Shown: one piece after another, positions 1,091-18,575 of the stretch
How the letters are laid out: each line of letters starts with the position of its first letter
Position numbering within the stretch: the first letter of the stretch is position 1
Source: an uncultured virus (IMG/VR IMGVR_UViG_3300032156_000006)
Taxonomy: Duplodnaviria > Heunggongvirae > Uroviricota > Caudoviricetes
Length of the DNA: 20,000 nt
Reading direction: 5' to 3' (one strand)
Virus record (IMG/VR): IMGVR_UViG_3300032156_000006
The notes under the pieces: model-generated
What the model was told of the DNA's origin: nothing
Databases searched by the model: none
Seen by the model: only the letters and a program-made list of their open reading frames with translations
Made by a program: the position numbers and the translations under genes

Positions 1091-1375
1091 GTGGAAAAGG
1101 AATTTGTTATCGTGAGAGGTCCACCTGGGGTTTATGCGGGCTATTTAGAAAAAGAGAATGGCGGAGACATAGAACTGTCAGAGGCGTTTTGTCTCTGGCG
1201 ATATTCTGGAGCGGCGAGTTTGAATCAACTTTCACAAGAAGGCGTGAAGTCTCCGCAAAACTGCAAATTTTCTATTTCAGTTCCAAAAATGCGCTTAAAG
1301 CAAATATTCCAAGTTTTACCTTGCTCGAAAGAGGCAAAGGAAAATTTGACTAATGTGAAAAGATGGAAAATTTAA
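1091..1375 (+). CDS. DUF6948-like small phage protein
   Basis: Motifs VIVRG..GVYAGYL, ELSEAFCLWRYSGAASLNQLSQEGV...NCKF and QVLPCS.EA...L..VKRWK. Likely start is GTG at 1091 after GATGTGA; the ORF track starts at TTG 1076. Confidence 0.75.
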   Translation: MEKEFVIVRGPPGVYAGYLEKENGGDIELSEAFCLWRYSGAASLNQLSQEGVKSPQNCKFSISVPKMRLKQIFQVLPCSKEAKENLTNVKRWKI

Positions 1376-2010
1376 TTGACGACTCAAATGGCGATGGCGA
1401 TGGCAATGGCAATGGCGATGGCAATGGCAATGGCGATGGCGATGGCAGTGGCGATGGCTATGGCTATGGCTGTGGCGATGGCAATGGCTATAGCGATGGC
1501 TATGGCGATGGCGATGGCAATGGCAATGGCGATGGCAATGGCGATGGCGATGGCAGTGGCGATGGCGATGGCAATGGCGATGGCTGTGGCTGTGGCTATA
1601 GCGATGGCGATGGCAATGGCAATGGCAATCTTTTTGTCATTGTGCAAGGTGTCTTTTTTCACAAAATTGCATTTGTAAATGCATTTGTTTTAAAAAATCT
1701 CACGGTCGACGACATTCTACTATGCGAAAATACAGAACAGAAAGCAGTACTCATACGCGAATATGGATATGAAATGATTTTGAAGAAAGCAAATACAAAA
1801 ATAATTGATGCTGAAGGTAAAAATTCGTTAATAGAATTTGAACTCGACAATAAGATTAAAGCAAGAGTTGTGTGCGTTGAAGACGCAACATCCAAAAAAA
1901 AATATTTCCTTGGAGTTCCTGTTCATAAACAAACCGAAACTTGTGCAGGAGCGATTGCGTGGACATTTGGGCAAGATAAAGAAAACTACATCCTTGAAAA
2001 AGAAACATGA
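1363..2010 (+). CDS. Gly-X (D/N/Y/S/C) repeat protein fused to a DUF6745-like C-terminal domain
   Basis: ATG at 1363 overlaps the upstream gene end. An 81-aa GX repeat is followed by ILLCENTEQKAVLIREYGYE...VVCVEDATSKKKYFLGVP...TCAGAIAWTFG...Y.LEKET. Confidence 0.75.
   Translation: MENLIDDSNGDGDGNGNGDGNGNGDGDGSGDGYGYGCGDGNGYSDGYGDGDGNGNGDGNGDGDGSGDGDGNGDGCGCGYSDGDGNGNGNLFVIVQGVFFHKIAFVNAFVLKNLTVDDILLCENTEQKAVLIREYGYEMILKKANTKIIDAEGKNSLIEFELDNKIKARVVCVEDATSKKKYFLGVPVHKQTETCAGAIAWTFGQDKENYILEKET
1387..1629 (+). repeat. Hexanucleotide tandem repeat (consensus DRT-GGC, about 40.5 units) with a higher-order 108-bp period
   Basis: Units are AATGGC/GATGGC/TATGGC/AGTGGC/TGTGGC plus two TATAGC. The rare variants (AGT and TAT-AGC) each recur exactly 36 codons apart. 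Confidence 0.95.
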
Positions 2011-2053
2011 TTGAATAAAAAATATTAGCTTGTGGGTTCGGGAAGGTTATACT

Positions 2054-2779
2054 ATGGCTAGTTTCAGAATATCCAAGTCCGCCTTGCAGGCATTCCGGAA
2101 TTGCCCGGAGAAATTCATGTGGATATACATAAAAGAAGTTCCGGATAGCACCGGACCCGAGGCATTGACAGGAAAACATCTGCACCAGATATTTTTTGAT
2201 TACTACAAGACGCTTGACATAAAAAAGATTAGTGACGAATACCTGATTCGGCACGCTATGGATTATGACAACGGGGCTTTGTCTGATCATCTGCAAAACT
2301 TCGCAGCTTTCAATTGCTATATATACAGTTCATTAAAGGACAAAGCAAAAATCAAACCTGTTCTCATAGAAGAACATCTTTTTTACCCAAAGCTGAACAT
2401 GAGTGGCTATGTGGATGCTATATTTGAGGATGACGATAACAATTGCATGGTTTTGGATTACAAAACCGGAAAATTTGATGAAAAACGCTTGCATGAATAT
2501 CGCCAAGAATTGTCGATTTATTCCGAATTGGCTAAAGAATCCAAGCGGTGCAAACCGACACACTGGGGAATTTCTTTCACGAAGTCCGGTGTATTTTGGA
2601 AGGAAAATATCCAGCCAGATTATTTCAAAACAAGTGTGCTGCCATTGTTTAAGGAGTTGCGTGAAAGCATCGCTAAGCAGCTGTTTCCGCCTAACGTAGG
2701 ACCGCTTTGTCTATATTGCAGCATGAAGAATAGATGCAGTGCATGGTCGCGGAGCTCTGGGGCAGTACTCAAAATGTAA
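2054..2779 (+). CDS. Cas4-like / PD-(D/E)XK exonuclease with a predicted 4Fe-4S cluster
   Basis: ISKSALQAFRNCPEKF, GKHLH, IEEHL, GYVDAIF, VLDYKTGK and C-terminal CLYCSMKNRC (1+3 Cys arrangement). Start at ATG 2054 after GGAAGGT. Confidence 0.88.
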   Translation: MASFRISKSALQAFRNCPEKFMWIYIKEVPDSTGPEALTGKHLHQIFFDYYKTLDIKKISDEYLIRHAMDYDNGALSDHLQNFAAFNCYIYSSLKDKAKIKPVLIEEHLFYPKLNMSGYVDAIFEDDDNNCMVLDYKTGKFDEKRLHEYRQELSIYSELAKESKRCKPTHWGISFTKSGVFWKENIQPDYFKTSVLPLFKELRESIAKQLFPPNVGPLCLYCSMKNRCSAWSRSSGAVLKM

Positions 2780-2998: not shown

Positions 2999-3014
2999 TG
3001 AGCCATGACCGTAG

Positions 3015-3368
3015 TTAATCCTTCTCTTTTGGAGCTGAAGGTGGAGTGGTTGGAAACGTAAATTTTGCCCCAGCTAAAAGATTTACCGCACGCAGTGCTG
3101 TAGTAAGAACAGGCGTGCCCATAAATCCGGCTATAGAAGTGCATGCCGCTGTCAGTATGTCAGATATGCCGTATTCTTTGCAAATAAAAAATATAACCAA
3201 TCCGCAAAACATTCCCACAAATGCTTCGGCAGTATAGCGCCAGAGTGTTTTCTTTCCTTCTTCTTCGCTGGATGTTATCTCCCGAACGATACCGCCCATG
3301 CCTGCGAGGATAATGTGGACAATCACTTCAATTGGTGTAACATTGTTAAATGACATAGAAATCATCAT
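3015..3368 (-). CDS. Putative holin (LydA-like, 3 TM)
   Basis: ILAGMGGIVR...YTAEAFVGMFCGLVIFFIC...AACTSIAGFMGT pattern. Three hydrophobic segments, at the end of the structural operon. Confidence 0.7.
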   Translation of the reverse strand: MMISMSFNNVTPIEVIVHIILAGMGGIVREITSSEEEGKKTLWRYTAEAFVGMFCGLVIFFICKEYGISDILTAACTSIAGFMGTPVLTTALRAVNLLAGAKFTFPTTPPSAPKEKD

Positions 3369-3652
3369 TTTAGAGCTTTAGCTAGCGTTTCGTACTGGGT
3401 TTTGTAGTATTGCCTCTCTTTGTACAGCCATAGGAGTATTATTCCTATGAGTATAATTATCAGTAACTCGCCAACTAAAAACCATTCGACAATTGAAGAA
3501 TATTGCGTATCACTTGCTAATGACATTCTAGCAATATTTTTCTTTTCTGACGTATATGCCTCAGCGAAAATAATGCTTAAAAAAAGAATAAACAATACTG
3601 CAAACGGAATCATATTCTGTTTGGACAGTATTGGAAGGCACACTTTTTTCAC
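3365..3652 (-). CDS. Two-TM membrane protein with a short C-terminal coiled coil
   Basis: Hydrophobic stretches IPFAVLFILFLSIIFA and WFLVGELLIIILIGIILLWLY. ATGA overlap with the holin gene. Confidence 0.7.
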   Translation of the reverse strand: MKKVCLPILSKQNMIPFAVLFILFLSIIFAEAYTSEKKNIARMSLASDTQYSSIVEWFLVGELLIIILIGIILLWLYKERQYYKTQYETLAKALK

Positions 3653-3656
3653 CTGT

Positions 3657-3989
3657 TTATATCATGCGATGCGCAAGTGTTTTTGGCGCAGCGGTTTTTA
3701 GTGCGGCGCCTGTAACTTTAGCTGTCGTTGGTGCCGGTACTCCTTGCGGCCTTGGCATTTTTTCAAGCAAATATACAAATACATATTTTGCCGCTTGGTA
3801 AAGGCCAACTGTCAGTCCGGCTTTGATAAATGTCATCAAGGTAGTGCCATCGGTTATAGTGTTAGTCGAGACATACCAGAAGAAACCTAGCATAAATCCC
3901 GAAAATGTGTACATTGCCACATCTTTTACAAAATCAGAGCTGATAATCTTGTTCACCCAATCGGTAATATCTAATGCTGAAATCGGCAT
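3657..3989 (-). CDS. Two-TM membrane protein (holin/antiholin-like)
   Basis: GGGGTG RBS. Two hydrophobic segments and a basic Pro/Thr/Ala-rich C-terminal tail. Confidence 0.7.
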   Translation of the reverse strand: MPISALDITDWVNKIISSDFVKDVAMYTFSGFMLGFFWYVSTNTITDGTTLMTFIKAGLTVGLYQAAKYVFVYLLEKMPRPQGVPAPTTAKVTGAALKTAAPKTLAHRMI

Positions 3990-4032
3990 TGTTACACCCC
4001 TTTTTCATTTAAAATTATAGTTCATTCGTCTT

Positions 4033-4053
4033 TTTTAAAGGCTCCGGCTCGTT
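4033..4053 (-). promoter_or_regulatory. Putative late promoter, copy A (AACG-N10-TATA)
   Basis: Minus strand AACG agccggagcc TTTAAAA, upstream of the membrane-protein/holin genes. Confidence 0.65.
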
Positions 4054-4054
4054 T

Positions 4055-5137
4055 TCAGACGCCATATGCCTTCTTTTCTACCATCTTCATGCGGCGCTCA
4101 AGGTCAGACAAATAAAGGCGTGTATCGATAATTTTTGTGTTGATTTGTATTGCAGTTCGAATGCCTGTCGAAGGGGACCAAGAATGTTTCATTGTCAAAA
4201 CCTGATAACCGCCATCTAGATTTATTGTTGGGGCTGAAATGTAAATATACTCGCCTGGATCGGTATATGCCAAAAAGAGCGACTCGAGCTCATAAGCATC
4301 CAAGGGATCTTTGCGGTTGCCAACCACAGTCTGCGCGAAGTTTCCTGCTGATGTAGCATCACCGACGTTTCCGACAGTAATTGCTCTGCTAAATGTACCG
4401 CGATTAGCTACAGAACTTGCATCAGTTGCCGTTCCAGTTGTCGATGCTCCAGCCCCCTGGATGACAACATCATTTGTCATAAACTCACTGTTTTTCGTGA
4501 CTTTGGTCTGCCTAAGAAGATTGTCGCCTTCGGTAATAACGTCAGGAGTATAAACAATATTCGCAGCCTGCCGTACATTCATATCACGGGTTGCTGGAGC
4601 AATCCAAAAATACACTTTGTACTGGTCACAGATTTGCTTAATGGCGTTGTATATCATGTCATTCGCAATGTTGGCAGAAACTAGGTATGACATTACTTCA
4701 GGCACGCTTTCGTAGGTAAAATCCGTCTGGTTGCTCAAGATTGAACGAATCGCAGCACCAAGATCTGCATTAGTAAACGTGCCAGAATACCGTTGTGATG
4801 ATAAGCGGCTCATGTACTCCTTTCCTTTCAACTCCAGTGTCTCACCGCTTCCGATGCTAAAGGCAACATCATCAACATACCCCCCCCAAACTTTGACGCC
4901 TATGGGGGGGGTTGTTTTGGTGGACATGAAAACTTCTATTTCATCCTGTGCCTGGAACAGGTCATAATAGGCACGGTTTGGATCAGACACAGTTATGCTG
5001 CAAGTCCCCGAGCCAGTGTTTAGCTCGCGCGAAACCTCAATCTTTTGGACACGGTCAAGCGGCAACTTGTTTATGCTGACAACTGCATCACCCCACGACT
5101 TAATTACCCACGAACCTGGTATTTCAAGCGAAGGCAT
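4055..5137 (-). CDS. Baseplate hub / tail-tip protein (gp27/gpD/Tal-like)
   Basis: IEVSRELNTGSGTCSITVSDP...DEIEVF...VWGGYVDDV...LELKGKEY...N(D)VVIQG...DPGEYIYI...GGYQVLTMKHSW. 360 aa, located downstream of the TMP and Dit-like genes. Confidence 0.8.
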   Translation of the reverse strand: MPSLEIPGSWVIKSWGDAVVSINKLPLDRVQKIEVSRELNTGSGTCSITVSDPNRAYYDLFQAQDEIEVFMSTKTTPPIGVKVWGGYVDDVAFSIGSGETLELKGKEYMSRLSSQRYSGTFTNADLGAAIRSILSNQTDFTYESVPEVMSYLVSANIANDMIYNAIKQICDQYKVYFWIAPATRDMNVRQAANIVYTPDVITEGDNLLRQTKVTKNSEFMTNDVVIQGAGASTTGTATDASSVANRGTFSRAITVGNVGDATSAGNFAQTVVGNRKDPLDAYELESLFLAYTDPGEYIYISAPTINLDGGYQVLTMKHSWSPSTGIRTAIQINTKIIDTRLYLSDLERRMKMVEKKAYGV

Positions 5138-5138
5138 A

Positions 5139-5699
5139 TCATTTCCTCGTATTATCGAATTCTAAAGTTGTATTGCCGACCATTATAATTCCTGATGCAT
5201 TATCAGAGACGAGGATTTCCAAATCGAATGGTTTTCCCTCGTGATTTTCTGCAGTAAAGGGATTTGTCAATAAGATAGTTGCATTTTCTGTTCCCATTAA
5301 TTTGGCAACTGGGAACTTCGAAAACTGGTAACTTACTCCGTCAATCCCTAGTTCATCTGGTGGTGTATCGTTGAGGTTAATCAGCATTCGCGCATTTGGA
5401 CTTGCAGATGACATTGAAGAAATATCTAACAGATTTGCACCGTTTTTAATCCAAATTCGCGGTATGACAGGAATTGCATATCCGTTTGGTTGCACTTCTG
5501 TAATTACATATGGATAGATAGCGACTGGTAAAGCAGTTTCATTTTGTGGCCTGATTTTGAAAGTATAAAGCGTATTGTTCTGATAAGCTTGGATATCGTG
5601 TATTCTTACATCAGGGGTAAGAGGCTCTGTTAGCGAAGTGACTAAAGAGATGAAAGCGACAATGCCAACTACAATTACAAATGCATGTTTATCACTCAT
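5139..5699 (-). CDS. Membrane-anchored/secreted putative glycoprotein (186 aa)
   Basis: N-terminal hydrophobic segment AFVIVVGIVAFISLV. Six N-x-S/T sequons. GGTGA RBS. Confidence 0.75.
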   Translation of the reverse strand: MSDKHAFVIVVGIVAFISLVTSLTEPLTPDVRIHDIQAYQNNTLYTFKIRPQNETALPVAIYPYVITEVQPNGYAIPVIPRIWIKNGANLLDISSMSSASPNARMLINLNDTPPDELGIDGVSYQFSKFPVAKLMGTENATILLTNPFTAENHEGKPFDLEILVSDNASGIIMVGNTTLEFDNTRK

Positions 5700-5703
5700 T
5701 TTT

Positions 5704-8277
5704 TCACCCTGTTTGATTTATTTTATAAATTCTGCTGAAGTTCAGCGTCAGATTTGTTGTATTCAAACAATTTACATATAACCATACATATGCTGTCGCA
5801 TTGGTACTATTGAGGTTCAAAATAATATTAACAGGAGTTGTAGTGATGTTTGTCGAATCTGTGGCATTGCCATTCGCGATGGCAGCCGTGTTGTTCCATT
5901 TTAATCTGGAAAAAATGGATGTTCCGTTTACTGTTTCATTTGTGGCCAAGCTGTAGTTGTGAAGTACGGATGTATTGAGGTTCCTAAACTTGAATATGCC
6001 TATACCTGCTGTTTGCCCCCACGGAGTGATGCCGTTAAATGTTGGAAACGGGCAAAGGAAACGAACTTCGGTTACACCCCAAGGCAAGTCTACTGTGAAT
6101 TCTCCATATGTGAAATTTCCAGTTGATGAATTTGTTGGTTGATAATTCGGTTTCCAACCTATGCATGACCAATTTGACGTACCGCCACCCGGTGCTGATA
6201 CTTGATGATACCAATACAACTGGCTAGAAATGACAAACGTTGTCGAATAATTCACTCCGTTGATATTTACATAAACCGGTGCATTATAAACAGATACATT
6301 ATGGGTAGCATTTAGAACACGCGTGAAATTACAATAGAAATCCATTATACTTGATGTAACATTTTCAGTGGATGGGACACGATAGCCCGAAGCAGAGGTA
6401 TTTGTTGGCGTTGCATTGACATAGACGTACCTCCAACTGGTGTACATTCCATTATACTGATAACACCCGCGGTAATAGACATACCCTGTGAGCCTATTGA
6501 GAGAGACCGAAATGTTGCTTATGTTTGCGCCAGTATATGTCCACGGAGTAACTACGTAAATTCCTTCCGCGGGAAACCAAGATTTGTTGTCTACGGAAAC
6601 TTGAATCGTCGTATTGTATGAAGCATCAGGCACACTCCAAGTTAGAGTCAAATTTGGAACTGTAGGAAGAGAAAGATTATTTGTAGGATATGTAAAACTA
6701 AGTGTATACAAAGGGGGTCCTTGTGGAGTGGCATCTTGAGTAATTGTTGCTCCAGATAGGAAATATAACGAAAGATCGTCTGCGCTTGCATTCCACGCGT
6801 AGTGAACAACATGATTTGTTGTTGAACCTACAGAACCTGGATTTGATGATGGATCTGTACCTGTGTCACATCTGATGGGGCTTCCGGTGCCACCGGCTCC
6901 ACCAGTATTTGTTATAGTTGCAGCCATAGCTGTCATATTGTTATGTGTGTGTACTGAACCATAGGCGGTCCCTCCATTCCCTCCTTTATATGTACCGGTT
7001 CCGCTACCAAATACATATCTACCTGGTGCAGCACCTCCTGTTCCTCCTTGTATTACCCATGCGATGCCGTTTGTAATTGCTTTTATATTTATATTTGAAG
7101 TAAGAGCTGCGCCACCGGTCCCTCCACACTGGCTGTATCCATAGCATGTCGTATTTACTGGACCGGCGCCTCCTGTACCGCCCTTCATGTAAACTAAGCC
7201 ACCGGTAAAGAAGAATCTTCCTCCAGATAGTGCTATTCCCCCAGACGTTCCACCTGCAGAAGCTTGTCTGCGATAAGGACTACATGTAGTTTCAGTATCA
7301 GCTTGTTTCGTTCCATTGCCACCAGTTACATTGATTATTCCCCCTGCTTGTCTCCAACTATCATAAGCAGTTATCGATATTGTTCCCGCATCGCCTCCCC
7401 ACCATCCAAAATCTTCACCTGCATATGCAAATTTCCCAGGATTTCCTCCGAGAGAGAGAATCGAGCCGGTATTAGATCCGTTTTGTACTATTATAGATAA
7501 TGTCGATGTCGAACCGCCATTGGCACTAGATGTTGTCGATGTACATGAATTGTTTCCTAGTCCACCTCGCTCCATTATAGTTCCAGTGTTCGAAAGTTCA
7601 CGTGCATGTATAGAAAGTGAACCTGAGGCGCCTCCAATGCAATTGGTACTGCTAACACTGCCACCTCCAATAGCGAGAACAGTTCCAGAATTGTTAAAAA
7701 AGTTGTCTGCCTCCAGAATCAGACCAATACCAGCGTTGCTACTTACATCCATGGGTGCAGTCAGCGTTTGCCCACTGTTTATTATAATATTTAAGTATCT
7801 TGATGTTGGAGCAGAACTTGCTGCTGCATACGCTTGACTTGAAGAAACCGTGCAAACGTCAGTATCGTTGCAACCAGGAATGGGAGTTGTAACTGTGAAT
7901 GTCTTTGTCAAGGTTGCAAAATTTCCTACAGTATCTGTTACTTGAATGCTACAATTAATTGTTCCTTCAGCGTTTGGCGTAATGGTCGTATTAGTGCGCC
8001 AGGCTTGTTTATCAGTATCCTGAATCGCACTTTGGTTAAATGCAACCCCCGGAGCAGTCACAATCCATTTTGCAAGGAAAATTGACTTGTTGTCAGGCGG
8101 ATAAACGTCGGCATAACAGCGATATGCCTTATTGATTTTAGGATAATTGATACTAGCGTTAGTTGAAGAATTTTTTAGATAAATCGAATGAACTTCTAGG
8201 GTAGTTTGGTTTAAATTAGCTGCCCAGCTAGTTGCTAGAAGAGCAAACATTATGATTGCAACAATCAAGTTTTTCAT
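5704..8277 (-). CDS. Large secreted surface glycoprotein/adhesin-like protein (857 aa) with a central Gly-rich repeat region
   Basis: Signal peptide MKNLIVAIIMFALLATSWA. More than 40 N-x-S/T sequons counted by eye. GGxGG-rich middle region and beta-rich Ig-like flanks with Cys pairs. ATG 8277 overlaps the DNase stop (ATGA). Confidence 0.8.
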   Translation of the reverse strand: MKNLIVAIIMFALLATSWAANLNQTTLEVHSIYLKNSSTNASINYPKINKAYRCYADVYPPDNKSIFLAKWIVTAPGVAFNQSAIQDTDKQAWRTNTTITPNAEGTINCSIQVTDTVGNFATLTKTFTVTTPIPGCNDTDVCTVSSSQAYAAASSAPTSRYLNIIINSGQTLTAPMDVSSNAGIGLILEADNFFNNSGTVLAIGGGSVSSTNCIGGASGSLSIHARELSNTGTIMERGGLGNNSCTSTTSSANGGSTSTLSIIVQNGSNTGSILSLGGNPGKFAYAGEDFGWWGGDAGTISITAYDSWRQAGGIINVTGGNGTKQADTETTCSPYRRQASAGGTSGGIALSGGRFFFTGGLVYMKGGTGGAGPVNTTCYGYSQCGGTGGAALTSNINIKAITNGIAWVIQGGTGGAAPGRYVFGSGTGTYKGGNGGTAYGSVHTHNNMTAMAATITNTGGAGGTGSPIRCDTGTDPSSNPGSVGSTTNHVVHYAWNASADDLSLYFLSGATITQDATPQGPPLYTLSFTYPTNNLSLPTVPNLTLTWSVPDASYNTTIQVSVDNKSWFPAEGIYVVTPWTYTGANISNISVSLNRLTGYVYYRGCYQYNGMYTSWRYVYVNATPTNTSASGYRVPSTENVTSSIMDFYCNFTRVLNATHNVSVYNAPVYVNINGVNYSTTFVISSQLYWYHQVSAPGGGTSNWSCIGWKPNYQPTNSSTGNFTYGEFTVDLPWGVTEVRFLCPFPTFNGITPWGQTAGIGIFKFRNLNTSVLHNYSLATNETVNGTSIFSRLKWNNTAAIANGNATDSTNITTTPVNIILNLNSTNATAYVWLYVNCLNTTNLTLNFSRIYKINQTG

Positions 8278-9035
8278 GCAGTATCCCCAACCTTTATTTC
8301 TGCCCACACAAGATAGTGATCTGAAATGGATGGAATTATTCCTTCTTTGAAAATTCCATGATGGATATATTCATTTTTCATGTCATCATTGAGTATAATT
8401 CTATCATAAGCACAGGAACTCGAGGCAACAGTTGTATCTTCGCTGTCATTGATTATCCATGTCCAGTTTACAAAGCTTCTGTTTTTCGTATTGTAATAGT
8501 TGCAATCCGCATTTAAATCTCCAAGGATCATCACATTACCTTCATTATTTATTATCTGCTCCAAGTTTGAAAGTTCTTGATATACATCGCTTGGTTGAAT
8601 ATGAATGTTGTAAGTACTAAAAGAATAATTGCTTATTGAAAATTTTGCCATTATTGGCGGTCGCTGCCATCTATTTTTTTCGTCAGGATTGAAGTCTGTT
8701 ACGTTCTCAAGTATGAATTCTTTTTTGTAAATTATTCCGTACTGCTCTTTCGATGCAGTGCGCCCAGCACGACTCGAATTCCAGCAATTGTACCCGGGCA
8801 ACATGGAGCAAAGTTTCGGGAATGCCGTGCCTGAGTCATCTCTTATTTCCTGTACAAACACTATGTCATAATCGTCTATTGTTTGTGCATAAAACCTCAT
8901 AAGTGTTTGATTCTGTGCCTTTTTCTCGCCAAATATCTGCAAATTCCAATTCGCAACTTTGAAAGTTTCTTGAGTGCTTTCAGTGATGCATCCCACAAGC
9001 AAAAAAGCAATGAATAATGCGAAGAGAATCTTCAT
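8274..9035 (-). CDS. DNase I-like endonuclease/exonuclease/phosphatase (EEP) family nuclease with a lipoprotein signal peptide
   Basis: MKILFALFIAFLLVG-C lipobox. Motifs NWNLQIFG, DIVFVQEIRD, GR..SKEQY, IH, ILGDLNADCNY, DTTV...CAYDRII and ISDHY match DNase I catalytic motifs. Confidence 0.9.
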   Translation of the reverse strand: MKILFALFIAFLLVGCITESTQETFKVANWNLQIFGEKKAQNQTLMRFYAQTIDDYDIVFVQEIRDDSGTAFPKLCSMLPGYNCWNSSRAGRTASKEQYGIIYKKEFILENVTDFNPDEKNRWQRPPIMAKFSISNYSFSTYNIHIQPSDVYQELSNLEQIINNEGNVMILGDLNADCNYYNTKNRSFVNWTWIINDSEDTTVASSSCAYDRIILNDDMKNEYIHHGIFKEGIIPSISDHYLVWAEIKVGDTA

Positions 9036-9394
9036 GTACCTGCCACCGCCACCGGAGTGCCCTCCGATGTTTTCATCCATATTCGAACTTGATTTGTGCC
9101 GTGCTGGCGCTCCCAAGCCCGTTTAAGTGATACAAAATCTGTTTCCAGTTTGCCTATCTCGCGCCCCCACTGTAGGTATTCTTTGTACATGCCATAGGCG
9201 CGTGTTTGAAACTCCACATAGCCAGCTGTTTTTTGCTTCAGCATCCTTGTCATCTCGTGATACGTTGTCAAATGGGACATCCTTTGATAATGGAGTTGCT
9301 GGATCTTTGTTTGCACTTCGCTCTCGTAAGCCAAAAGTTCATAGTAAGGCATCCTGTTTATGTCATCACCAGTTAACTGGGCAATCGGTTTCAT
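9032..9394 (-). CDS. Hypothetical helical/coiled-coil protein (120 aa)
   Basis: GAGGA RBS. ATGA coupling to the DNase gene. No TM segment or signal peptide. Confidence 0.7.
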   Translation of the reverse strand: MKPIAQLTGDDINRMPYYELLAYESEVQTKIQQLHYQRMSHLTTYHEMTRMLKQKTAGYVEFQTRAYGMYKEYLQWGREIGKLETDFVSLKRAWERQHGTNQVRIWMKTSEGTPVAVAGT

Positions 9395-9404
9395 GAGTAT
9401 TCCT

Positions 9405-10034
9405 CTAAATCTTGATGCTATCTTGGACTTCAGTGAATGTCAAGGTGACATGTACACGATTAACGCTGGCTTCATCACGCTCGTAATCAAAGTCCTGTGG
9501 ATAAATATAATAAATCTTGTCGGCTGCTGCACGTGTTACACCCATTCCGGCTGGCCAAACACCAGAGCCTGGCACACTGGCTGCATCTAACTCGTAATCG
9601 GCATTTCCACCTGGTGGATACATCGTAGATGGGATTGTCGGTGGCACTCCTGCCATATTTGCATTATGTGTCGAATCCATAGCAGCTGGATACGGAACAA
9701 ACAATAGCAGATAATTTCCAGAACCAGACGCCGGATAATTCCCCAAAGGCGTTCCGTACCAGTTGCAGCTCATGATATACAACAAATCCTCGATCTGATC
9801 AGCTATAGAGCCAGAACCGGGATAAGATGAGTTGTATGTGCTTGGAATTATCGTTGCACGAATAGTAATCGAGCGCTGTTGCGAGGTAAAGTCGAACATC
9901 CATGGGCGGATCCATGTGGGCAAGTCCATAGGGCTGTTGCCTGCCTTTGAAAGGTGAAAAGAAACGCCCGTAGGCATAGGATCAAAGCGAAAGAGCCTTG
10001 TTGTTCCGTAGTATATTTCAACTGGATTTGACAT
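9405..10034 (-). CDS. Putative distal tail (Dit-like) protein
   Basis: Immediately downstream of the TMP. RSITIRATI and C-terminal DFDYERDEASVNRVHVTLTFTEV are tube/Dit-like strands. The call rests mainly on gene order. Confidence 0.55.
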   Translation of the reverse strand: MSNPVEIYYGTTRLFRFDPMPTGVSFHLSKAGNSPMDLPTWIRPWMFDFTSQQRSITIRATIIPSTYNSSYPGSGSIADQIEDLLYIMSCNWYGTPLGNYPASGSGNYLLLFVPYPAAMDSTHNANMAGVPPTIPSTMYPPGGNADYELDAASVPGSGVWPAGMGVTRAAADKIYYIYPQDFDYERDEASVNRVHVTLTFTEVQDSIKI

Positions 10035-10039
10035 ATTAA

Positions 10040-11440
10040 TCACACTGACAATACATTGACATTAGAGCCACCGGCGGCAGCTTGGACCTCGTGGCGCCCA
10101 AGTGAATTGCCGGACGAATCACGTAATGTGATCACAACATTCGCTGTCATGCGCTTGCTGGCTTCGTCGAATCTTTTTACAGCATCATCGAATCTTTTAA
10201 AGTCGTTGCTGAGTATTTCAAACATGCTTGCGGTTATTTGACCTCCTGATGTTATCCCAGCAGAAGCCGATGGGGTTTTTTTCAAGGCATCCTCCATAAT
10301 ATCCCCTAGTTTCGCGCCTCCAAATATTGCGCCGAGCCCTCCTTGCAAAAAACTCAAAATATGCTTTGTAGGAGCTGCAAGAAATTCAACAAGACCAGTG
10401 AATGATAATTTTGGAAGTCCAAGTTTCGTTAAGATCGCATTAACTGGGTTTACTAAGAAATCTAGTAGTTTTGCAACAGAAAACGCAATCAAACCAATTC
10501 TTGAAAAAATTTGCCCAATTGGATTATCCAAAAATTTCTTTAGCTCTGAGAACAGCATTCGTGTAATTCCTAATTTTTCAAGAATACCTATTACACCTCC
10601 TGCAAATTCTCCAAGAAAAGTGATGAGATTACTAAATTTTTCCTTTCCGAAATCAAAGAGTTTTACAATAACATCTCCTGCAGTTCCTGCAAATTCTCCA
10701 AGAAAAGTGATGAGATTACTAAATTTTTCCTTTCCGAAATCAAAGAGTTTTACAATAACATCTCCTGCAGTTCCTGCAAATTCTCCAAGAAAGGCAGCAA
10801 GGTCGCTAGCTGCATCAGCTGCTATGCCAAGGAACCCAAAAATGGCGCCGACTGGCGCCGTAATAAATTCGAGCAGTGATCCGGGCATCATCTTTCCTAT
10901 GGCCTCTTTTGCAAATTCAAAGATTTTGCCTAAAACCTTGCTTCCTTCATCAATCAGTGCTTGAAATATTGGCATCACGGCTTCTCCCATTTTAAGTGCT
11001 CCTCCGATTAGATCTCCACCTTTCATCATGCCTGCGGCCTCTGCCATCATTGGCTTGCTCTTTTTAGCAGCATCCATCATAGCCATCAGCACAGGTCGCA
11101 TCATCAAGTTCACTAATTTGACAATCGGCCCCAAGATGTACAAAATCGGAAGGATAAGTGGAAGCAATAGGTTGGTAAATGGCATAACCAGTAATGTAAG
11201 AAGTTTGATAACGCCATCAAGAATACGCAAAACCGGTCGGAGGGCTTCTGTGAGGATAGCTCCTGCAGTTCTTTTAATCATGTCGATAGGACCTTTGCCA
11301 CCAAGGGCAGTCGCAGCACCGCCTTTGCCCCCCGTGCTTGTTCTCCGTATGTCGTTTTTGATATCAGTAAGCAGGGCAACCATGCGATCTTGTTGATCGT
11401 TTCCTGCTTGCTGCGGTGCTTGTGGTGGTGGCATATTCAT
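10040..11440 (-). CDS. Tail tape measure protein (466 aa)
   Basis: Follows the tail chaperone. Long amphipathic helical sequence rich in A/G/L/I/F, with periodic Phe and an internal 29-aa tandem repeat. Confidence 0.82.
   Translation of the reverse strand: MNMPPPQAPQQAGNDQQDRMVALLTDIKNDIRRTSTGGKGGAATALGGKGPIDMIKRTAGAILTEALRPVLRILDGVIKLLTLLVMPFTNLLLPLILPILYILGPIVKLVNLMMRPVLMAMMDAAKKSKPMMAEAAGMMKGGDLIGGALKMGEAVMPIFQALIDEGSKVLGKIFEFAKEAIGKMMPGSLLEFITAPVGAIFGFLGIAADAASDLAAFLGEFAGTAGDVIVKLFDFGKEKFSNLITFLGEFAGTAGDVIVKLFDFGKEKFSNLITFLGEFAGGVIGILEKLGITRMLFSELKKFLDNPIGQIFSRIGLIAFSVAKLLDFLVNPVNAILTKLGLPKLSFTGLVEFLAAPTKHILSFLQGGLGAIFGGAKLGDIMEDALKKTPSASAGITSGGQITASMFEILSNDFKRFDDAVKRFDEASKRMTANVVITLRDSSGNSLGRHEVQAAAGGSNVNVLSV
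10598..10792. repeat. Perfect 87-bp tandem duplication (about 2.2 copies) inside the tape measure gene
   Basis: TCCTGCAAATTCTCCAAGAAA starts at 10598, 10685 and 10772. It encodes FLGEFAGTAGDVIVKLFDFGKEKFSNLIT. Confidence 0.95.
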
Positions 11441-17162: not shown

Positions 17163-18575
17163 TTACGTCACTGCGAACACTGGGACGCAGTAATTCGTCC
17201 CAGCGATGTCGATTTTCAGCCAGTATGCCGGGTTTCCACTGTGCGGACAGTTCGTCAGGGTTCCCGTGCTGCTGCCTTCCGTCTGGAAGCATCCGTTGGT
17301 TGCACTCTCAAATTTGACGAATGACGTCCAGTTCTGGTTTGTCGGTCTGACGTGCAGTGGGACCACGAAAGCCCCGCTTATCGTGCCTGGCCAGTTGCCA
17401 CCGAACGAGATGCAGGAAAGTTTGCTGCCCGACGCGAGCGTCCCGTTCACGTCCACTGACGCGTGGTGTGAGCTCGCCCCAACGGTGAATCCGTCGAGCG
17501 TCACGCCCGTCCCGATGCAGAATGAGGTCATCAGCGTGGGCCAGTGGTTGCTTCCGTTGTCGGTTACGTTAGCTTCCACGTCCGTGACGAAGAAGCCGGT
17601 GTATGGCCATCCCGTGTGCGTTCCGCCCGTCGAAGCCGTCAGGATTGTCTGATTGACCGTGAAGCACTCGCCCCATGCGGTCAGGGCCGCGCCGCCATCG
17701 CCAAAATAGAAGCCGACTGGCGCTCCTGCGTTCCAGCTTGTACCGTCGGTTATGGACTTCATTCCAGTCTCACCTGTGCCAACCCACGGCCTTCCAATCA
17801 GGATGGCGCGTTTGCTTCCAGTGCCTATGTCAATGGCATAAGAAGAGCAAGTGCTGATTTTCACGCCTGTCGTGCATCCGATGTTGATGTTGAGTCCATT
17901 AGTGAGAGTCCTTGTTCCTGTTTGCGATGAATCATTTATCATACATATGCCGTCACCAAGTTTCGTGCTGCCTCCGCTTCCATCTCGTGCAGTAAGATAC
18001 AAACCATGAATTTTCGCAGCATTGGTTGAGTCTGTCCTGGCACATGAACTCGGGCTTAGCCTTGCACACGCAAGATAATTGGTGATTGTGATGGCCCCGC
18101 CACTGTCACCTTCTGGGGAGATGCAGAATTCTGCTGCGCCACCTCCGGTATACGTAATTGCAGTTGCGCCACTTTTCAGCATGACGTCAACATAAAGTCC
18201 CTGCAGATTTCCAGATGCTCCAGTTAATCCTACATCGTAGTCAGCTGCAAGTATTTCCATTGCCCTTAGCCCTTTGCCTGTGCCTGCAGTTCTGTTTTCT
18301 GCCCTGAAACTATAGCCTGTGAAAGCATCTTTGCCTGTCCAGCTGCTCATCTGGAATTTTGCTTTCCAAAGATCCCCATAGCTTGCAAGATAGGTCGAAT
18401 CTATTGTGATATTGCTTCCAGCCGCTGTGCCAGTCGCAACACGGCCTTTCAAAATAAGCGTGTCAACAGCAGCATCACCAAAGGTGAAGGTGCCTGATAC
18501 TGTGAGATTATTTGTGACGATATTGTCAGTTACAACCATTCTCCTTATTCGATCTCCATCCAACGTGCTGCCCAT
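17163..18575 (-). CDS. Fibre/spike-like virion protein (470 aa; head fibre or receptor-binding protein)
   Basis: Gly/Thr/Ser-rich and beta-repetitive. N-terminal NLTVSGTFTFGDAAVDTL and C-terminal WLKIDIAGTNYCVPVF resemble fibre ends. Directly after the MCP. Confidence 0.6.
   Translation of the reverse strand: MGSTLDGDRIRRMVVTDNIVTNNLTVSGTFTFGDAAVDTLILKGRVATGTAAGSNITIDSTYLASYGDLWKAKFQMSSWTGKDAFTGYSFRAENRTAGTGKGLRAMEILAADYDVGLTGASGNLQGLYVDVMLKSGATAITYTGGGAAEFCISPEGDSGGAITITNYLACARLSPSSCARTDSTNAAKIHGLYLTARDGSGGSTKLGDGICMINDSSQTGTRTLTNGLNINIGCTTGVKISTCSSYAIDIGTGSKRAILIGRPWVGTGETGMKSITDGTSWNAGAPVGFYFGDGGAALTAWGECFTVNQTILTASTGGTHTGWPYTGFFVTDVEANVTDNGSNHWPTLMTSFCIGTGVTLDGFTVGASSHHASVDVNGTLASGSKLSCISFGGNWPGTISGAFVVPLHVRPTNQNWTSFVKFESATNGCFQTEGSSTGTLTNCPHSGNPAYWLKIDIAGTNYCVPVFAVT

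Follow-up and report, generated by a model that had tools for sequence, protein, structure and literature searches.

Judged from the sequence, most of the gene block between the Dit-like tail tube initiator gene and the baseplate hub gene of this virus is a conserved feature of its virus group, and the DNase gene alone is the recent add-on. The window, that is, the whole stretch of 20,000 nucleotides that we analysed, belongs to an uncultured lineage of siphovirus-like viruses that probably infect archaea, possibly DPANN archaea. The gene calls bear out the first-pass annotation in that four genes (g120, DNase, g857 and g186) sit in this interval (Table 1), and all of them are co-oriented with both flanking genes. 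At about even chances, we consider that the block supplies N-glycoproteins conserved in the lineage, which are exported, produced along with the tail and active beyond the membrane, together with a host-derived scavenging nuclease.

Table 1. Features of the block and its surroundings in the window.
Feature	Positions	Strand	Basis
Tape measure protein, 466 aa, upstream context of the block	10040..11440	-	PHROG tape-measure families, best 5.3e-06
Dit-like / tail tube initiator protein, 212 aa	9405..10043	-	directly after tape measure gene; structure leads
g120, no hydrophobic segment, no sequons	9032..9394	-	positional homologue in L001
Lipobox DNase I-like nuclease, 253 aa, probable lineage-specific insertion	8274..9035	-	PF03372, solved DNase I
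g857, signal-peptide, sequon-rich, adhesin-like beta-helix predicted glycoprotein, 857 aa	5704..8277	-	sequon counts, AF2 model, relatives
g186, small predicted glycoprotein, one N-terminal membrane helix	5139..5699	-	hydrophobicity, sequons, L001 counterpart
Baseplate hub protein, 360 aa	4055..5137	-	YQBQ-like PF24032, phrog_400, profile match to 9h4p_BD
Three small membrane proteins (110, 95, 117 aa), last holin-like, directly after hub	3015..3989	-	LydA PF16083, phrog_785

It is strongly indicated that g857, g186 and the DNase would form one tightly coupled operon with the tail genes and be translated together with them. ATGA start/stop overlaps join g120 to the DNase gene (9032-9035) and the DNase gene to g857 (8274-8277), and g857/g186 and g186/hub are separated by 4 bp and 1 bp. 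The tight coupling described earlier holds at these four junctions but not between the Dit-like gene and g120, where the gap is 10 bp rather than 4 bp or less; this was the sole wrong detail in the earlier observation. The Dit-like protein showed no sequence match in Pfam, PHROG or PDB. Its nearest atlas clusters are viral, and its model resembles CIS_tube, Dit_like (TM 0.53), DNA_circ_N and tail-tube-initiator clusters, all of which serve as leads only. The hub matches the phrog_400 tail protein and, under the cut-off of 27, YQBQ-like PF24032 (24.7 bits, 1.9e-05); a profile built from 8 relatives matches the solved 'Baseplate hub' 9h4p_BD (E 2.6e-07, positions 29-364). The holin-like protein matches the LydA holin PF16083 (9.4e-13) and phrog_785 holin (2.9e-16), and g110-like and holin-like genes also come after the hub in the related contigs L001, L004 and L005. 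This holin family is known from bacteriophages, which counts against the reading given above. The tape measure gene carries an exact 87-bp tandem duplication at 10598-10792, and no provirus was found in either of two genome scans.

The Dit-like and hub genes had been described as normally adjacent. On the contrary, they are adjacent in none of the five related contigs whose interval is fully visible; in all five, the interval holds a member of the g857 family and, after it, a further exported protein rich in sequons. The order in L001 is Dit-like, g120-like, g857-like, a 184-aa anchored protein, a 535-aa lipoprotein and hub, without the DNase, and in L004, L005, L007 and L008 it is Dit-like, g857-like, a second exported protein and hub (L007 matches L008 in its ORF lengths and N-termini). 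Positional homologues of g857 were found in L001, L002, L004, L005 and L008, and L001 also has those of g120 and g186. The L001 counterpart of g120 is 29% identical over 117 aa (E 4e-18); g120 itself had no match in the family searches, has 0 sequons and is absent from L004, L005 and L008. Between g186 and the 184-aa protein at the corresponding place, the resemblance is weak (26% over 119 aa, pairwise E 0.005). The DNase gene, on the other hand, is present in none of seven related contigs. Accordingly, the idea of an embedded cassette stands for the variable, inserted DNase alone and is not supported for g120, g857 and g186. It is strongly indicated that g857 belongs to a virus-linked family which, in this lineage, would always lie between the tube-initiator and hub genes.

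The inserted gene encodes the lipobox DNase I-like enzyme that the first-pass annotation had recognised. The protein matches PF03372 (45.3 bits, 1.1e-11; cut-off 24.5) and solved DNase I (E 2.4e-24), with the QEIRD, NIHI, GDLNADC and YDRI motifs kept where the alignment covers them, and its lipobox L-V-G-C lies at residues 13-16 (MKILFALFIAFLLVGC). Among its 590 relatives, the best listed are 53-62% identical, and the four named ones among these are Nanoarchaeota or Micrarchaeota. In the phylogeny against cellular archaeal homologues, the viral copy nests among membrane-anchored DPANN nucleases, the nearest being a Micrarchaeota copy. An anchor or lipobox is present at the N-terminus of each of the 23 homologues fetched, whose contigs reach 600 kb. 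It is strongly indicated that DPANN archaea were the donors of the gene, which would descend from one of their membrane-tethered nucleases of the DNase I-like type and was apparently acquired as a precise, recent single-gene insertion.

The cellular relatives of the DNase and its GC content of 0.370, the second-lowest among 20 genes (mean 0.436, sd 0.040), could also suggest that the block, or this gene alone, is an assembly chimera or misjoined host DNA. We regard this as nearly negligible, considering that the start/stop overlaps couple the DNase to both neighbours, that its GC3 is ordinary (0.374) and that synteny with seven related contigs extends over the remainder of the block. A separately built contig of the sequencing run spans 7773-10627 and thereby covers both DNase junctions, and read coverage is uniform (depth 9.0 to 9.9) except over the tape-measure repeat; these reads were drawn from the probable source sample and are thus not independent support.

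Export was called from Kyte-Doolittle hydrophobicity (the 15-residue maximum in the first 40 residues), motifs and sequon statistics. The maxima are 3.13 for the DNase, 2.45 for g857 and 3.09 for g186. Among the other 17 window proteins, high values occur only in two small lysis-cassette membrane proteins (g95, 2.95; holin-like, 2.03), and the remaining 15, non-membrane proteins do not exceed 1.44. g857 has the motif TSWA/AN; g186 has its hydrophobic segment at residues 6-20 and no second one, in line with the membrane anchor proposed before. It is strongly indicated that all three bear Sec-type export signals. N-x-S/T sequons were counted against 2000 shuffles per protein: g857 has 45 against 18.4 expected (reached in 0 of 2000 shuffles), the DNase 7 against 2.8 (p 0.0145) and g186 6 against 2.0 (p 0.005). 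Nine other window proteins tested were at expectation (p 0.07 to 1.0), so that among the proteins tested the enrichment is confined to the three with signals. As claimed earlier, then, three of the four block proteins look exported, and they look N-glycosylated as well; the sequon excess fits N-glycosylation on the outer membrane face. None of the 45 g857 sequons has D/E at position -2, which presumably argues against the bacterial PglB type.

Should the hydrophobic stretches not be export signals, these would be ordinary cytoplasmic tail-tip proteins, and the sequon excess a by-product of Asn- and Ser/Thr-rich beta structure. The genes do lie inside the tail module, and phage tail proteins often have beta-helix and Ig/FN3 folds. 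However, the excess is directional, the reversed motif S/T-x-N showing no enrichment, and it is found across unrelated folds. The DNase is one of these, and most of its cellular homologues show no such excess (the 23 together have 63 sequons, with 61.6 expected). The nearest tree neighbour of the viral copy has 13 against 4.8 expected; sequon enrichment therefore appears to track the organism rather than the type of fold. The complete 38-kb genome of the relative G002 has 48 kept ORFs, of which exactly 4 show a hydrophobic segment at the N-terminus (KD at least 2.0); all 4 are sequon-enriched (p <=0.01), against 0 of the 44 others. Several relatives also carry textbook lipoboxes. We consider a cytoplasmic location highly improbable.

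g857 has the sequon number (above 40), the signal peptide and the Gly-rich core (18.9% Gly in residues 131-516) that had been described. Its AF2 model (pLDDT 84.3) consists of an Ig-like domain after the signal peptide, a parallel beta-helix at residues about 130-516, Ig/FN3 domains and a conserved C-terminal domain heavy in sequons. The adhesin assignment is upheld as a fold only: the thin right-handed helix is shared with two-partner secretion and autotransporter adhesins, with VIA-align Z of 20.0 for the HMW1 secretion domain, the top match, and 19.6, 19.5 and 16.9 for HxuA, EtpA and FHA (rmsd 2.3-3.4, 211-231 residues), but sequence identity is 12-15% and there is no bacterial outer-membrane partner system. 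Among 1.84 billion representatives, 32 relatives were found, 31 of them sequon-enriched (1208 sequons against 478 expected). Long members have an N-terminal hydrophobic segment in 19 of 22 cases and a second segment in none. The C-terminal domain is the most conserved and most sequon-dense part (9.9 per 100 aa), and the sequons at N768 and N774 are kept in at least 90% of the family.

The conserved position and the lack of another fibre candidate raise an alternative absent from the first-pass annotation: the exported glycoproteins may be the virion's own fibres or receptor-binding proteins, secreted and N-glycosylated first and then joining the hub, and in relatives also the capsid, outside the cytoplasm, under the S-layer or at lysis. 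The g857 family stays next to the hub gene even where hub identity has dropped to about 30%, and accessory genes are seldom so fixed. Between tube and lysis genes, neither the window nor L001 has another fibre or receptor-binding candidate, and for this reason a virion role fits better than an accessory role. In addition, at 360 aa the hub is short compared with the 954 aa of the matched solved hub, and g857 evolves faster than its flanking structural proteins (34% identity to L001, against 60%, 55% and 56% for tube, Dit-like protein (L001 4300-4866) and hub). Right after the capsid gene, where phages usually encode decoration proteins, G001 and G002 have genes for additional exported lectin and beta-helix proteins. 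The helix also resembles phage tailspikes and depolymerases (Z 13 to 14.5), which are likewise encoded beside the hub gene. On the other hand, these matches score lower than those to adhesin helices, so that the top matches are monomeric and not trimeric spikes; no catalytic motif is seen, and phage tailspikes are not known to have a signal peptide. A C-terminal domain both most conserved and most sequon-dense would be odd for a buried attachment domain, and a non-exported 369-aa protein after the G002 hub could be the fibre. Furthermore, tailed viruses are not known to put tail parts together outside the cytoplasm. We consider a virion role unlikely, though of real weight.

The block is separated only by the hub gene from the three small membrane proteins. 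The exported proteins might accordingly act in egress, being put under or on the S-layer before lysis and binding or loosening its glycosylated lattice so that particles can escape after the membrane has been opened by the holin-like proteins. In relatives, lectin (Laminin_G_3), DUF2341 and Beta_helix domains occur in exported proteins, and an egress role would be unfilled, since S-layer-degrading enzymes of archaeal viruses have so far not been found, according to excerpts from two sources (PMC10791045; 10.1101/2022.10.18.512658). Against this, family searches found no catalytic motif or enzyme family in g857 or g186, the helix of g857 most resembles those of adhesins without enzymatic activity, and the genes lie in the tail operon, not after the holin-like gene. 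An egress function seems improbable to us.

Display at the cell surface by exported accessory proteins has counterparts in known systems. Lambda lom, T5 llp beside the receptor-binding gene and cor of phi80/N15, which are moron or exclusion genes of phage tail regions, also encode exported or lipid-anchored products that act at the cell surface and not in the particle, and the DNase resembles them in being present in one lineage and absent from relatives. Moron genes, however, are small, sporadic and often equipped with their own promoter, whereas here a large, putatively glycosylated protein family is fixed across the virus group and translationally coupled, and the four exported sequon-enriched proteins of G002 make up about 20% of its genome. 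The DNase shares its endonuclease/exonuclease/phosphatase fold, DNase I motifs and N-terminal lipobox or anchor with the tethered DPANN nucleases and mycoplasma MnuA, which are found in small scavenging cells; it differs in being virus-encoded, sequon-enriched and in a tail operon, and scores 29.7 bits with the MnuA family, far under the 185-bit cut-off. The secreted DNases of Streptococcus pyogenes prophages are likewise virus-borne accessory genes, but they have another enzyme fold and a bacterial host, and they lie at the end of the prophage, not among tail genes. By description only, the exported block proteins may also be compared with the signal-peptide tip proteins of haloarchaeal Tafi fimbriae, which are host proteins in a pilus locus (10.64898/2026.09.13.751334).

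In summary, we prefer surface-acting glycoproteins with an acquired nuclease, while noting that g857 has no membrane anchor of its own and that the DPANN affinity of the DNase marks its donor and not necessarily the host. The roles proposed earlier, namely exclusion, DNA clearing, scavenging and attachment, are conceivable. Late in infection, g857, g186 and the DNase would be displayed outside the membrane, where g186 or a lipoprotein neighbour may hold g857. The lipid-anchored DNase would cut extracellular or lysis-released DNA, and this may feed nucleotide salvage in a scavenging-dependent host. With its Ig-like domain, thin Gly-rich beta-helix, Ig/FN3 spacers and conserved, putatively glycosylated end domain, g857 would serve as a surface adhesin or shield, altering what the infected cell binds or what binds the cell.

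A long operon on the minus strand, from a siphovirus-like virus, runs through the window; within it, g120, the DNase gene, g857 and g186 lie between the genes of a Dit-like protein and the predicted baseplate hub. In the case of the hub, the comparison with PF24032 (YqbQ/XkdQ-like) gave 24.7 bits, just under the Pfam cut-off of 27, and a profile of 8 hub relatives matched the solved structure 9h4p_BD, annotated as 'Baseplate hub', over 336 positions (E 2.6e-07). The Dit-like protein gave no sequence match in Pfam, PHROG or PDB, including with a 5-member profile. Its Atlas model resembles the Dit_like, CIS_tube and DNA_circ_N clusters at TM 0.47-0.58, and the putative label of this 212-aa protein rests on its position and on structural leads to tube-initiator, Dit-like and CIS-tube clusters. 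Atlas yielded no usable lead for g186, and a tRNA search of the window returned zero tRNA genes. The tight coupling of the block described in the first-pass annotation holds for the two ATGA overlaps and for the gaps of 4 bp and 1 bp, but the Dit-like gene and g120 are separated by 10 bp.

Features of the window and of related virus contigs (L numbers)
Feature	Record	Coordinates	Strand	Basis or remark
Capsid protein	window	19660-18761	minus	PF25209
Gly-/Cys-rich protein, 470 aa	window	17163-18575	minus	directly after capsid gene
Tail tube	window	13723-12161	minus	PF18906
Tape measure	window	11440-10040	minus	
Tandem duplication, 87 bp	window	10598-10792		inside tape measure gene
Dit-like protein, 212 aa	window	10043-9405	minus	position and Atlas structural leads
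g120	window	9394-9032	minus	
DNase	window	9035-8274	minus	PF03372
g857	window	8277-5704	minus	
g186	window	5699-5139	minus	
Baseplate hub, 360 aa	window	5137-4055	minus	YQBQ-like PF24032 and hub-profile match
Three small membrane proteins, last holin-like	window	3015-3989	minus	downstream of hub
Cas4-like PD-(D/E)XK nuclease	window	2030-2779	plus	PF12705, 1.1e-18
DUF6745-matching protein	window	1363-2010	plus	C-terminal half, 9.4e-11
6/18-bp repeat	window	1388-1629		encodes GDGNGN-type run
Second exported family	L001	8316-9923		directly upstream of hub
Second exported family	L003	21-2813		directly upstream of hub
Second exported family	L004	8700-9953		directly upstream of hub
Second exported family	L005	10669-13833		same slot
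Second exported family	L008	7018-9951		same slot
Transglutaminase-like cysteine protease candidate	L004	11070-12134		after hub
Transglutaminase-like cysteine protease candidate	L005	14108-16012		after hub
Transglutaminase-like cysteine protease candidate	L008	11115-12224		after hub
ORF, 223 aa	L004	2805-3476		between tube and chaperone-like genes
Cas4-like nuclease counterpart	L001	14471-15196		same relative place

Among 20 proteins of the window, a strongly hydrophobic N-terminus was found only in the DNase, g857, g186 and two lysis-cassette proteins. The DNase begins with a textbook lipobox (MK-ILFALFIAFL-LVGC, Cys16), that is, a short positive N-terminus and a hydrophobic stretch followed by [LVI][ASTVI][GAS]C, and is a predicted lipoprotein. 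For g857, a putative type I Sec signal peptide is suggested by an N-terminal Kyte-Doolittle maximum of 2.45 and a TSWA/A motif. When N-x-S/T sequons were compared with 2000 shuffles per protein, we counted 45 against 18.4 expected in g857, 7 against 2.8 in the DNase and 6 against 2.0 in g186. This enrichment was confined to the three signal-bearing proteins; nine other tested proteins of the window were at expectation, and the reversed motif showed no enrichment. The observation on the block is genuine and well past chance. With an export signal and more sequons than their composition predicts, the exported block proteins have the features of archaeal N-glycoproteins, and their predicted export and glycosylation are well supported statistically. 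Bacterial PglB-type glycosylation was rejected: the bacterial sequon pattern is D/E-x-N, and D/E stands at position -2 in none of the 45 g857 sequons. A class III (pilin-type) signal was also weighed for g186 from its sequence but set aside, since DKHA, the stretch ahead of the helix, does not fit the motif of such signals.

In IMG/VR, the single hub protein, the first hub alignment and the long-form g857 subfamily gave no match; seven related contigs were gathered with further alignments of the hub and of g857. There are three close hub relatives. In L001, where the tube, Dit-like and hub proteins are 60%, 55% and 56% identical to those of the window, the order is tube, chaperone-like, tape measure, Dit-like, g120-like (29%) and g857-like, followed by a 184-aa anchored protein weakly similar to g186, a 535-aa lipoprotein, the hub, a g110-like and a holin-like gene, with no DNase. 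The g857-like protein (845 aa, 34% identity) has a predicted signal peptide and 35 sequons against 13.5 expected, and the 535-aa lipoprotein has 35 against 14.6. A four-base overlap joins the g120-like gene to the g857-like one at the point where the window has the DNase. In L004, L005, L007 and L008, whose hubs are about 30% identical to that of the window, the tape measure and Dit-like genes are followed by a g857-like gene (product about 800 aa), by the gene of another exported protein rich in sequons (a 417-aa lipoprotein and proteins of 1054 and 977 aa) and by the hub. L002 shows the C-terminus of a g857-like protein directly ahead of the hub, and in the cut contig L003 only the second protein is visible. 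A g857-family gene is present in six of the seven contigs, and a g857 relative (P0126) and a hub relative (P0123) also occur together on one 82-kb contig.

Accordingly, the view of the block as four genes inserted between normally adjacent neighbours has to be revised. The Dit-like and hub genes are adjacent in none of the five complete intervals of this lineage, and g120, g857 and g186 have counterparts in L001; the DNase alone is variable, being found in 0 of the 7 contigs.

The second exported family, which the window lacks, consists of sequon-rich lipoproteins or signal-anchored proteins of 417 to 1054 aa. A module of roughly 100 residues is common to its members, as is a conserved tail of 25-35 residues at the C-terminus; their Gly_rich_2, DUF2341 or Laminin_G_3 domains vary. 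Elsewhere in these contigs, a post-hub gene in L004, L005 and L008 gave weak matches to transglutaminase-like cysteine proteases (best 1.5e-06); its product could be a tail-borne or lysis enzyme, and neither the window nor L001 has a counterpart. The 223-aa ORF of L004 shows by eye a GIY...YIG-like motif at its start and may be a homing endonuclease.

The same pattern is seen at whole-genome scale in G002, the record behind L008 (38,069 bases, rated 100% complete). Exactly 4 of its 48 kept ORFs have an N-terminal hydrophobic stretch; all four are sequon-enriched, and none of the other 44 has a sequon p <=0.01. Two of them are encoded in the interval from the Dit-like gene to the hub, and two directly follow a 324-aa ORF in the capsid-gene position (placed by position only), one of these having a ConA-like lectin domain. 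The four total 2480 residues, about 19.5% of the genome. In the incomplete record G001, the capsid gene is followed by a lipoprotein of 414 aa and by a Beta_helix protein of 1144 aa that carries an export-type signal. The slot that holds exported lectin and beta-helix proteins in these two records is occupied in the window by the 470-aa Gly-/Cys-rich protein, with the highest GC of the window (0.529; mean 0.436); it has no family match and no signal peptide, and none of the fetched loci encodes a relative.

In phages, genes for decoration and fibre proteins occupy two spots, after the capsid gene and beside the hub. The lineage might make its host-recognition parts (fibre, spike, decoration) by a secretory route, through Sec export, host N-glycosylation and then extracytoplasmic attachment to the hub or, in relatives, to the capsid. 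The particle would in that case leave the cytoplasm unarmed and be completed under the S-layer or at lysis. We consider this unlikely and keep it alive because of the fixed position beside the hub and the heavy share of the genome devoted to these proteins, and because neither the window nor L001 shows any other candidate for a fibre. Our preferred reading is display of the exported proteins on the surface of the infected cell.

A word-based search with g857 returned only itself, and an exhaustive HMMER search of 1.84 billion representatives yielded 32 relatives. Among the 22 relatives of at least 700 aa, 19 have an N-terminal hydrophobic stretch, the other three look N-terminally cut, and none has a second hydrophobic segment; 31 of the 32 relatives are sequon-enriched. 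The C-terminal region is the most conserved, with the signature CPFPT...GQ.AG.GIFRI.N.N.T...NYS and two conserved sequons, and the sequon density of g857 increases toward it, up to 9.9 per 100 residues. The modelling proposed in the first-pass annotation gave a good AlphaFold model (pLDDT 84.3, pTM 0.73), in which the Gly-rich core, residues ~130-516 (18.9% Gly), forms an adhesin-type right-handed parallel beta-helix. This helix is nearest to the secretion domains of HMW1, HxuA, EtpA and FHA (Z 17-20; for HMW1, 2odl, Z 20.0, rmsd 2.6, 231 residues aligned), and phage tailspikes score lower (Z 13-14.5). The remainder is Ig/FN3-like: Foldseek of the whole model returned only generic Ig/FN3 matches, a C-terminal fragment model matched an Ig-like domain of SiiE (Z 10.6), and the last ~130 residues, barely probed in that fragment model, gave no clear structural match. 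On the one hand, g857 shares the fold of two-partner-secretion adhesins, but it has no Pfam or NCBIfam signature and the window has no gene for a TpsB outer-membrane partner. On the other hand, it shares the parallel beta-helix with phage tailspikes and receptor-binding proteins, but a tailspike is a cytoplasmic product with no export signal, whereas g857 and the 19 long relatives carry an N-terminal export-type signal.

The DNase matches PF03372 with 45.3 bits (cut-off 24.5) over profile positions 2-225 of 225, and a solved DNase I with E 2.4e-24. The segments QEIRD, NIHI, GDLNADC and YDRI align with the DNase I motifs that contain the catalytic and metal-binding residues; a C-terminal SDHY, outside the printed DNase I alignment, is present in the viral protein and 22 of 23 fetched homologues. 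On these family features it is a predicted DNase I-like nuclease of the endonuclease/exonuclease/phosphatase superfamily. It is not a member of the MnuA family of membrane nucleases (NF045851, 29.7 bits against a cut-off of 185). We found 590 relatives, with identities of 53-62% among the best 120 of 590. Four carry an organism name, in each case that of a Nanoarchaeota or Micrarchaeota MAG, and some are on contigs 300-600 kb long and are therefore cellular; all 23 fetched homologues have an N-terminal membrane helix or lipobox. The proposed phylogeny against cellular archaeal homologues (FastTree, 120 sequences) placed the viral copy among DPANN relatives, inside a 43-row clade with support 98, its nearest neighbour by path being the Micrarchaeota protein P0061, also a lipobox protein; since the tree is unrooted and quick, this placement is a lead. 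Taken together, the 23 cellular homologues show no enrichment, with 63 sequons against 61.6 expected, but P0061 has 13 against 4.8, and the excess shared by it and the viral DNase thus tracks organism, not fold. Only the DNase behaves as a moron, present in one virus and absent from close relatives of like gene order; g857, g120 and g186 do not. It probably lacks a promoter and terminator of its own, because the ATGA overlap with both neighbours leaves zero intergenic space. As judged from these comparisons, it appears to be a clear example of viral capture of a scavenging surface enzyme, with DPANN-type archaea as the source.

The concern that the block is a chimeric host insertion was not borne out. 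The stretch was found in one sediment-metagenome run, probably its source, and in no RNA dataset among the sequencing runs listed. Separately built contigs of that run cover 3000-7774 and 7773-10627 at depth 9.0-9.7 and run across the DNase junctions on either side as well as those of the Dit-like and hub genes; breaks fall within g857 and at the tape-measure repeat. The DNase gene is low in GC (0.370; mean 0.436) but ordinary in GC3. Given the bridged junctions, the even depth and this GC3, a chimeric assembly is very unlikely. In the repeat itself, 87 bp are duplicated in tandem without a mismatch (2.2 copies, 100% match), repeating a 29-residue unit, and depth rises there.

Neither the g857 family nor the hub profile turned up a relative or a provirus in the genomes of 185,579 species, and in 50,697 phage records tblastn detected nothing similar to the capsid, tube and hub proteins. 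We infer, short of proof, an archaeal host, because the sequon excess is linked to export and lacks the bacterial pattern and because the affinity of the DNase is DPANN; the holin-like gene, however, belongs to a bacteriophage family. That gene, the last of three after the hub, encodes a 117-aa protein matching the LydA holin family PF16083 (9.4e-13) and phrog_785 (2.9e-16), and genes similar to the small membrane proteins also follow the hub in L001, L004 and L005. On the opposite strand, the Cas4-like nuclease falls far under the cut-off of the cas4 model; its L001 counterpart adjoins a UDG-family B polymerase fusion protein (765 aa). The 6/18-bp repeat produces a long run at the start of the DUF6745-matching protein.

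Taking these results together, we rank first a reading in which g857-type proteins would be shown on the infected-cell surface as adhesin or shield, and the nuclease captured from a DPANN-type cell would serve scavenging. As a third option, the exported proteins may breach the S-layer at egress. According to passages of two papers, neither holins nor enzymes that degrade the S-layer have yet been identified for archaeal tailed viruses (PMC10791045; 10.1101/2022.10.18.512658); if the host is archaeal, the holin-like gene is noteworthy against these reports, and the holin-like genes near the block bear on how archaeal tailed viruses exit. Searches of full-text papers gave no report on exported glycoproteins or an exported nuclease in archaeal tail modules, nor on a virus-encoded nuclease in archaeal viruses.

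In summary, the whole lineage puts exported, apparently N-glycosylated lectin- or adhesin-like proteins at the decoration and fibre gene spots of phages. The capture of the DNase is a lead to the host and to the nucleotide economy of infected genome-reduced cells. In the usual view, tailed viruses of archaea are built as phages are, every tail part being synthesised and put together in the cytoplasm. If the secretory route were true, part of the virion would be made by secretion, and no tailed virus before this one would have had a maturation step that is extracellular and depends on glycosylation. If surface remodelling is true, the host surface would be altered far more than by known phages. 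Either would be new for archaeal head-tailed viruses.
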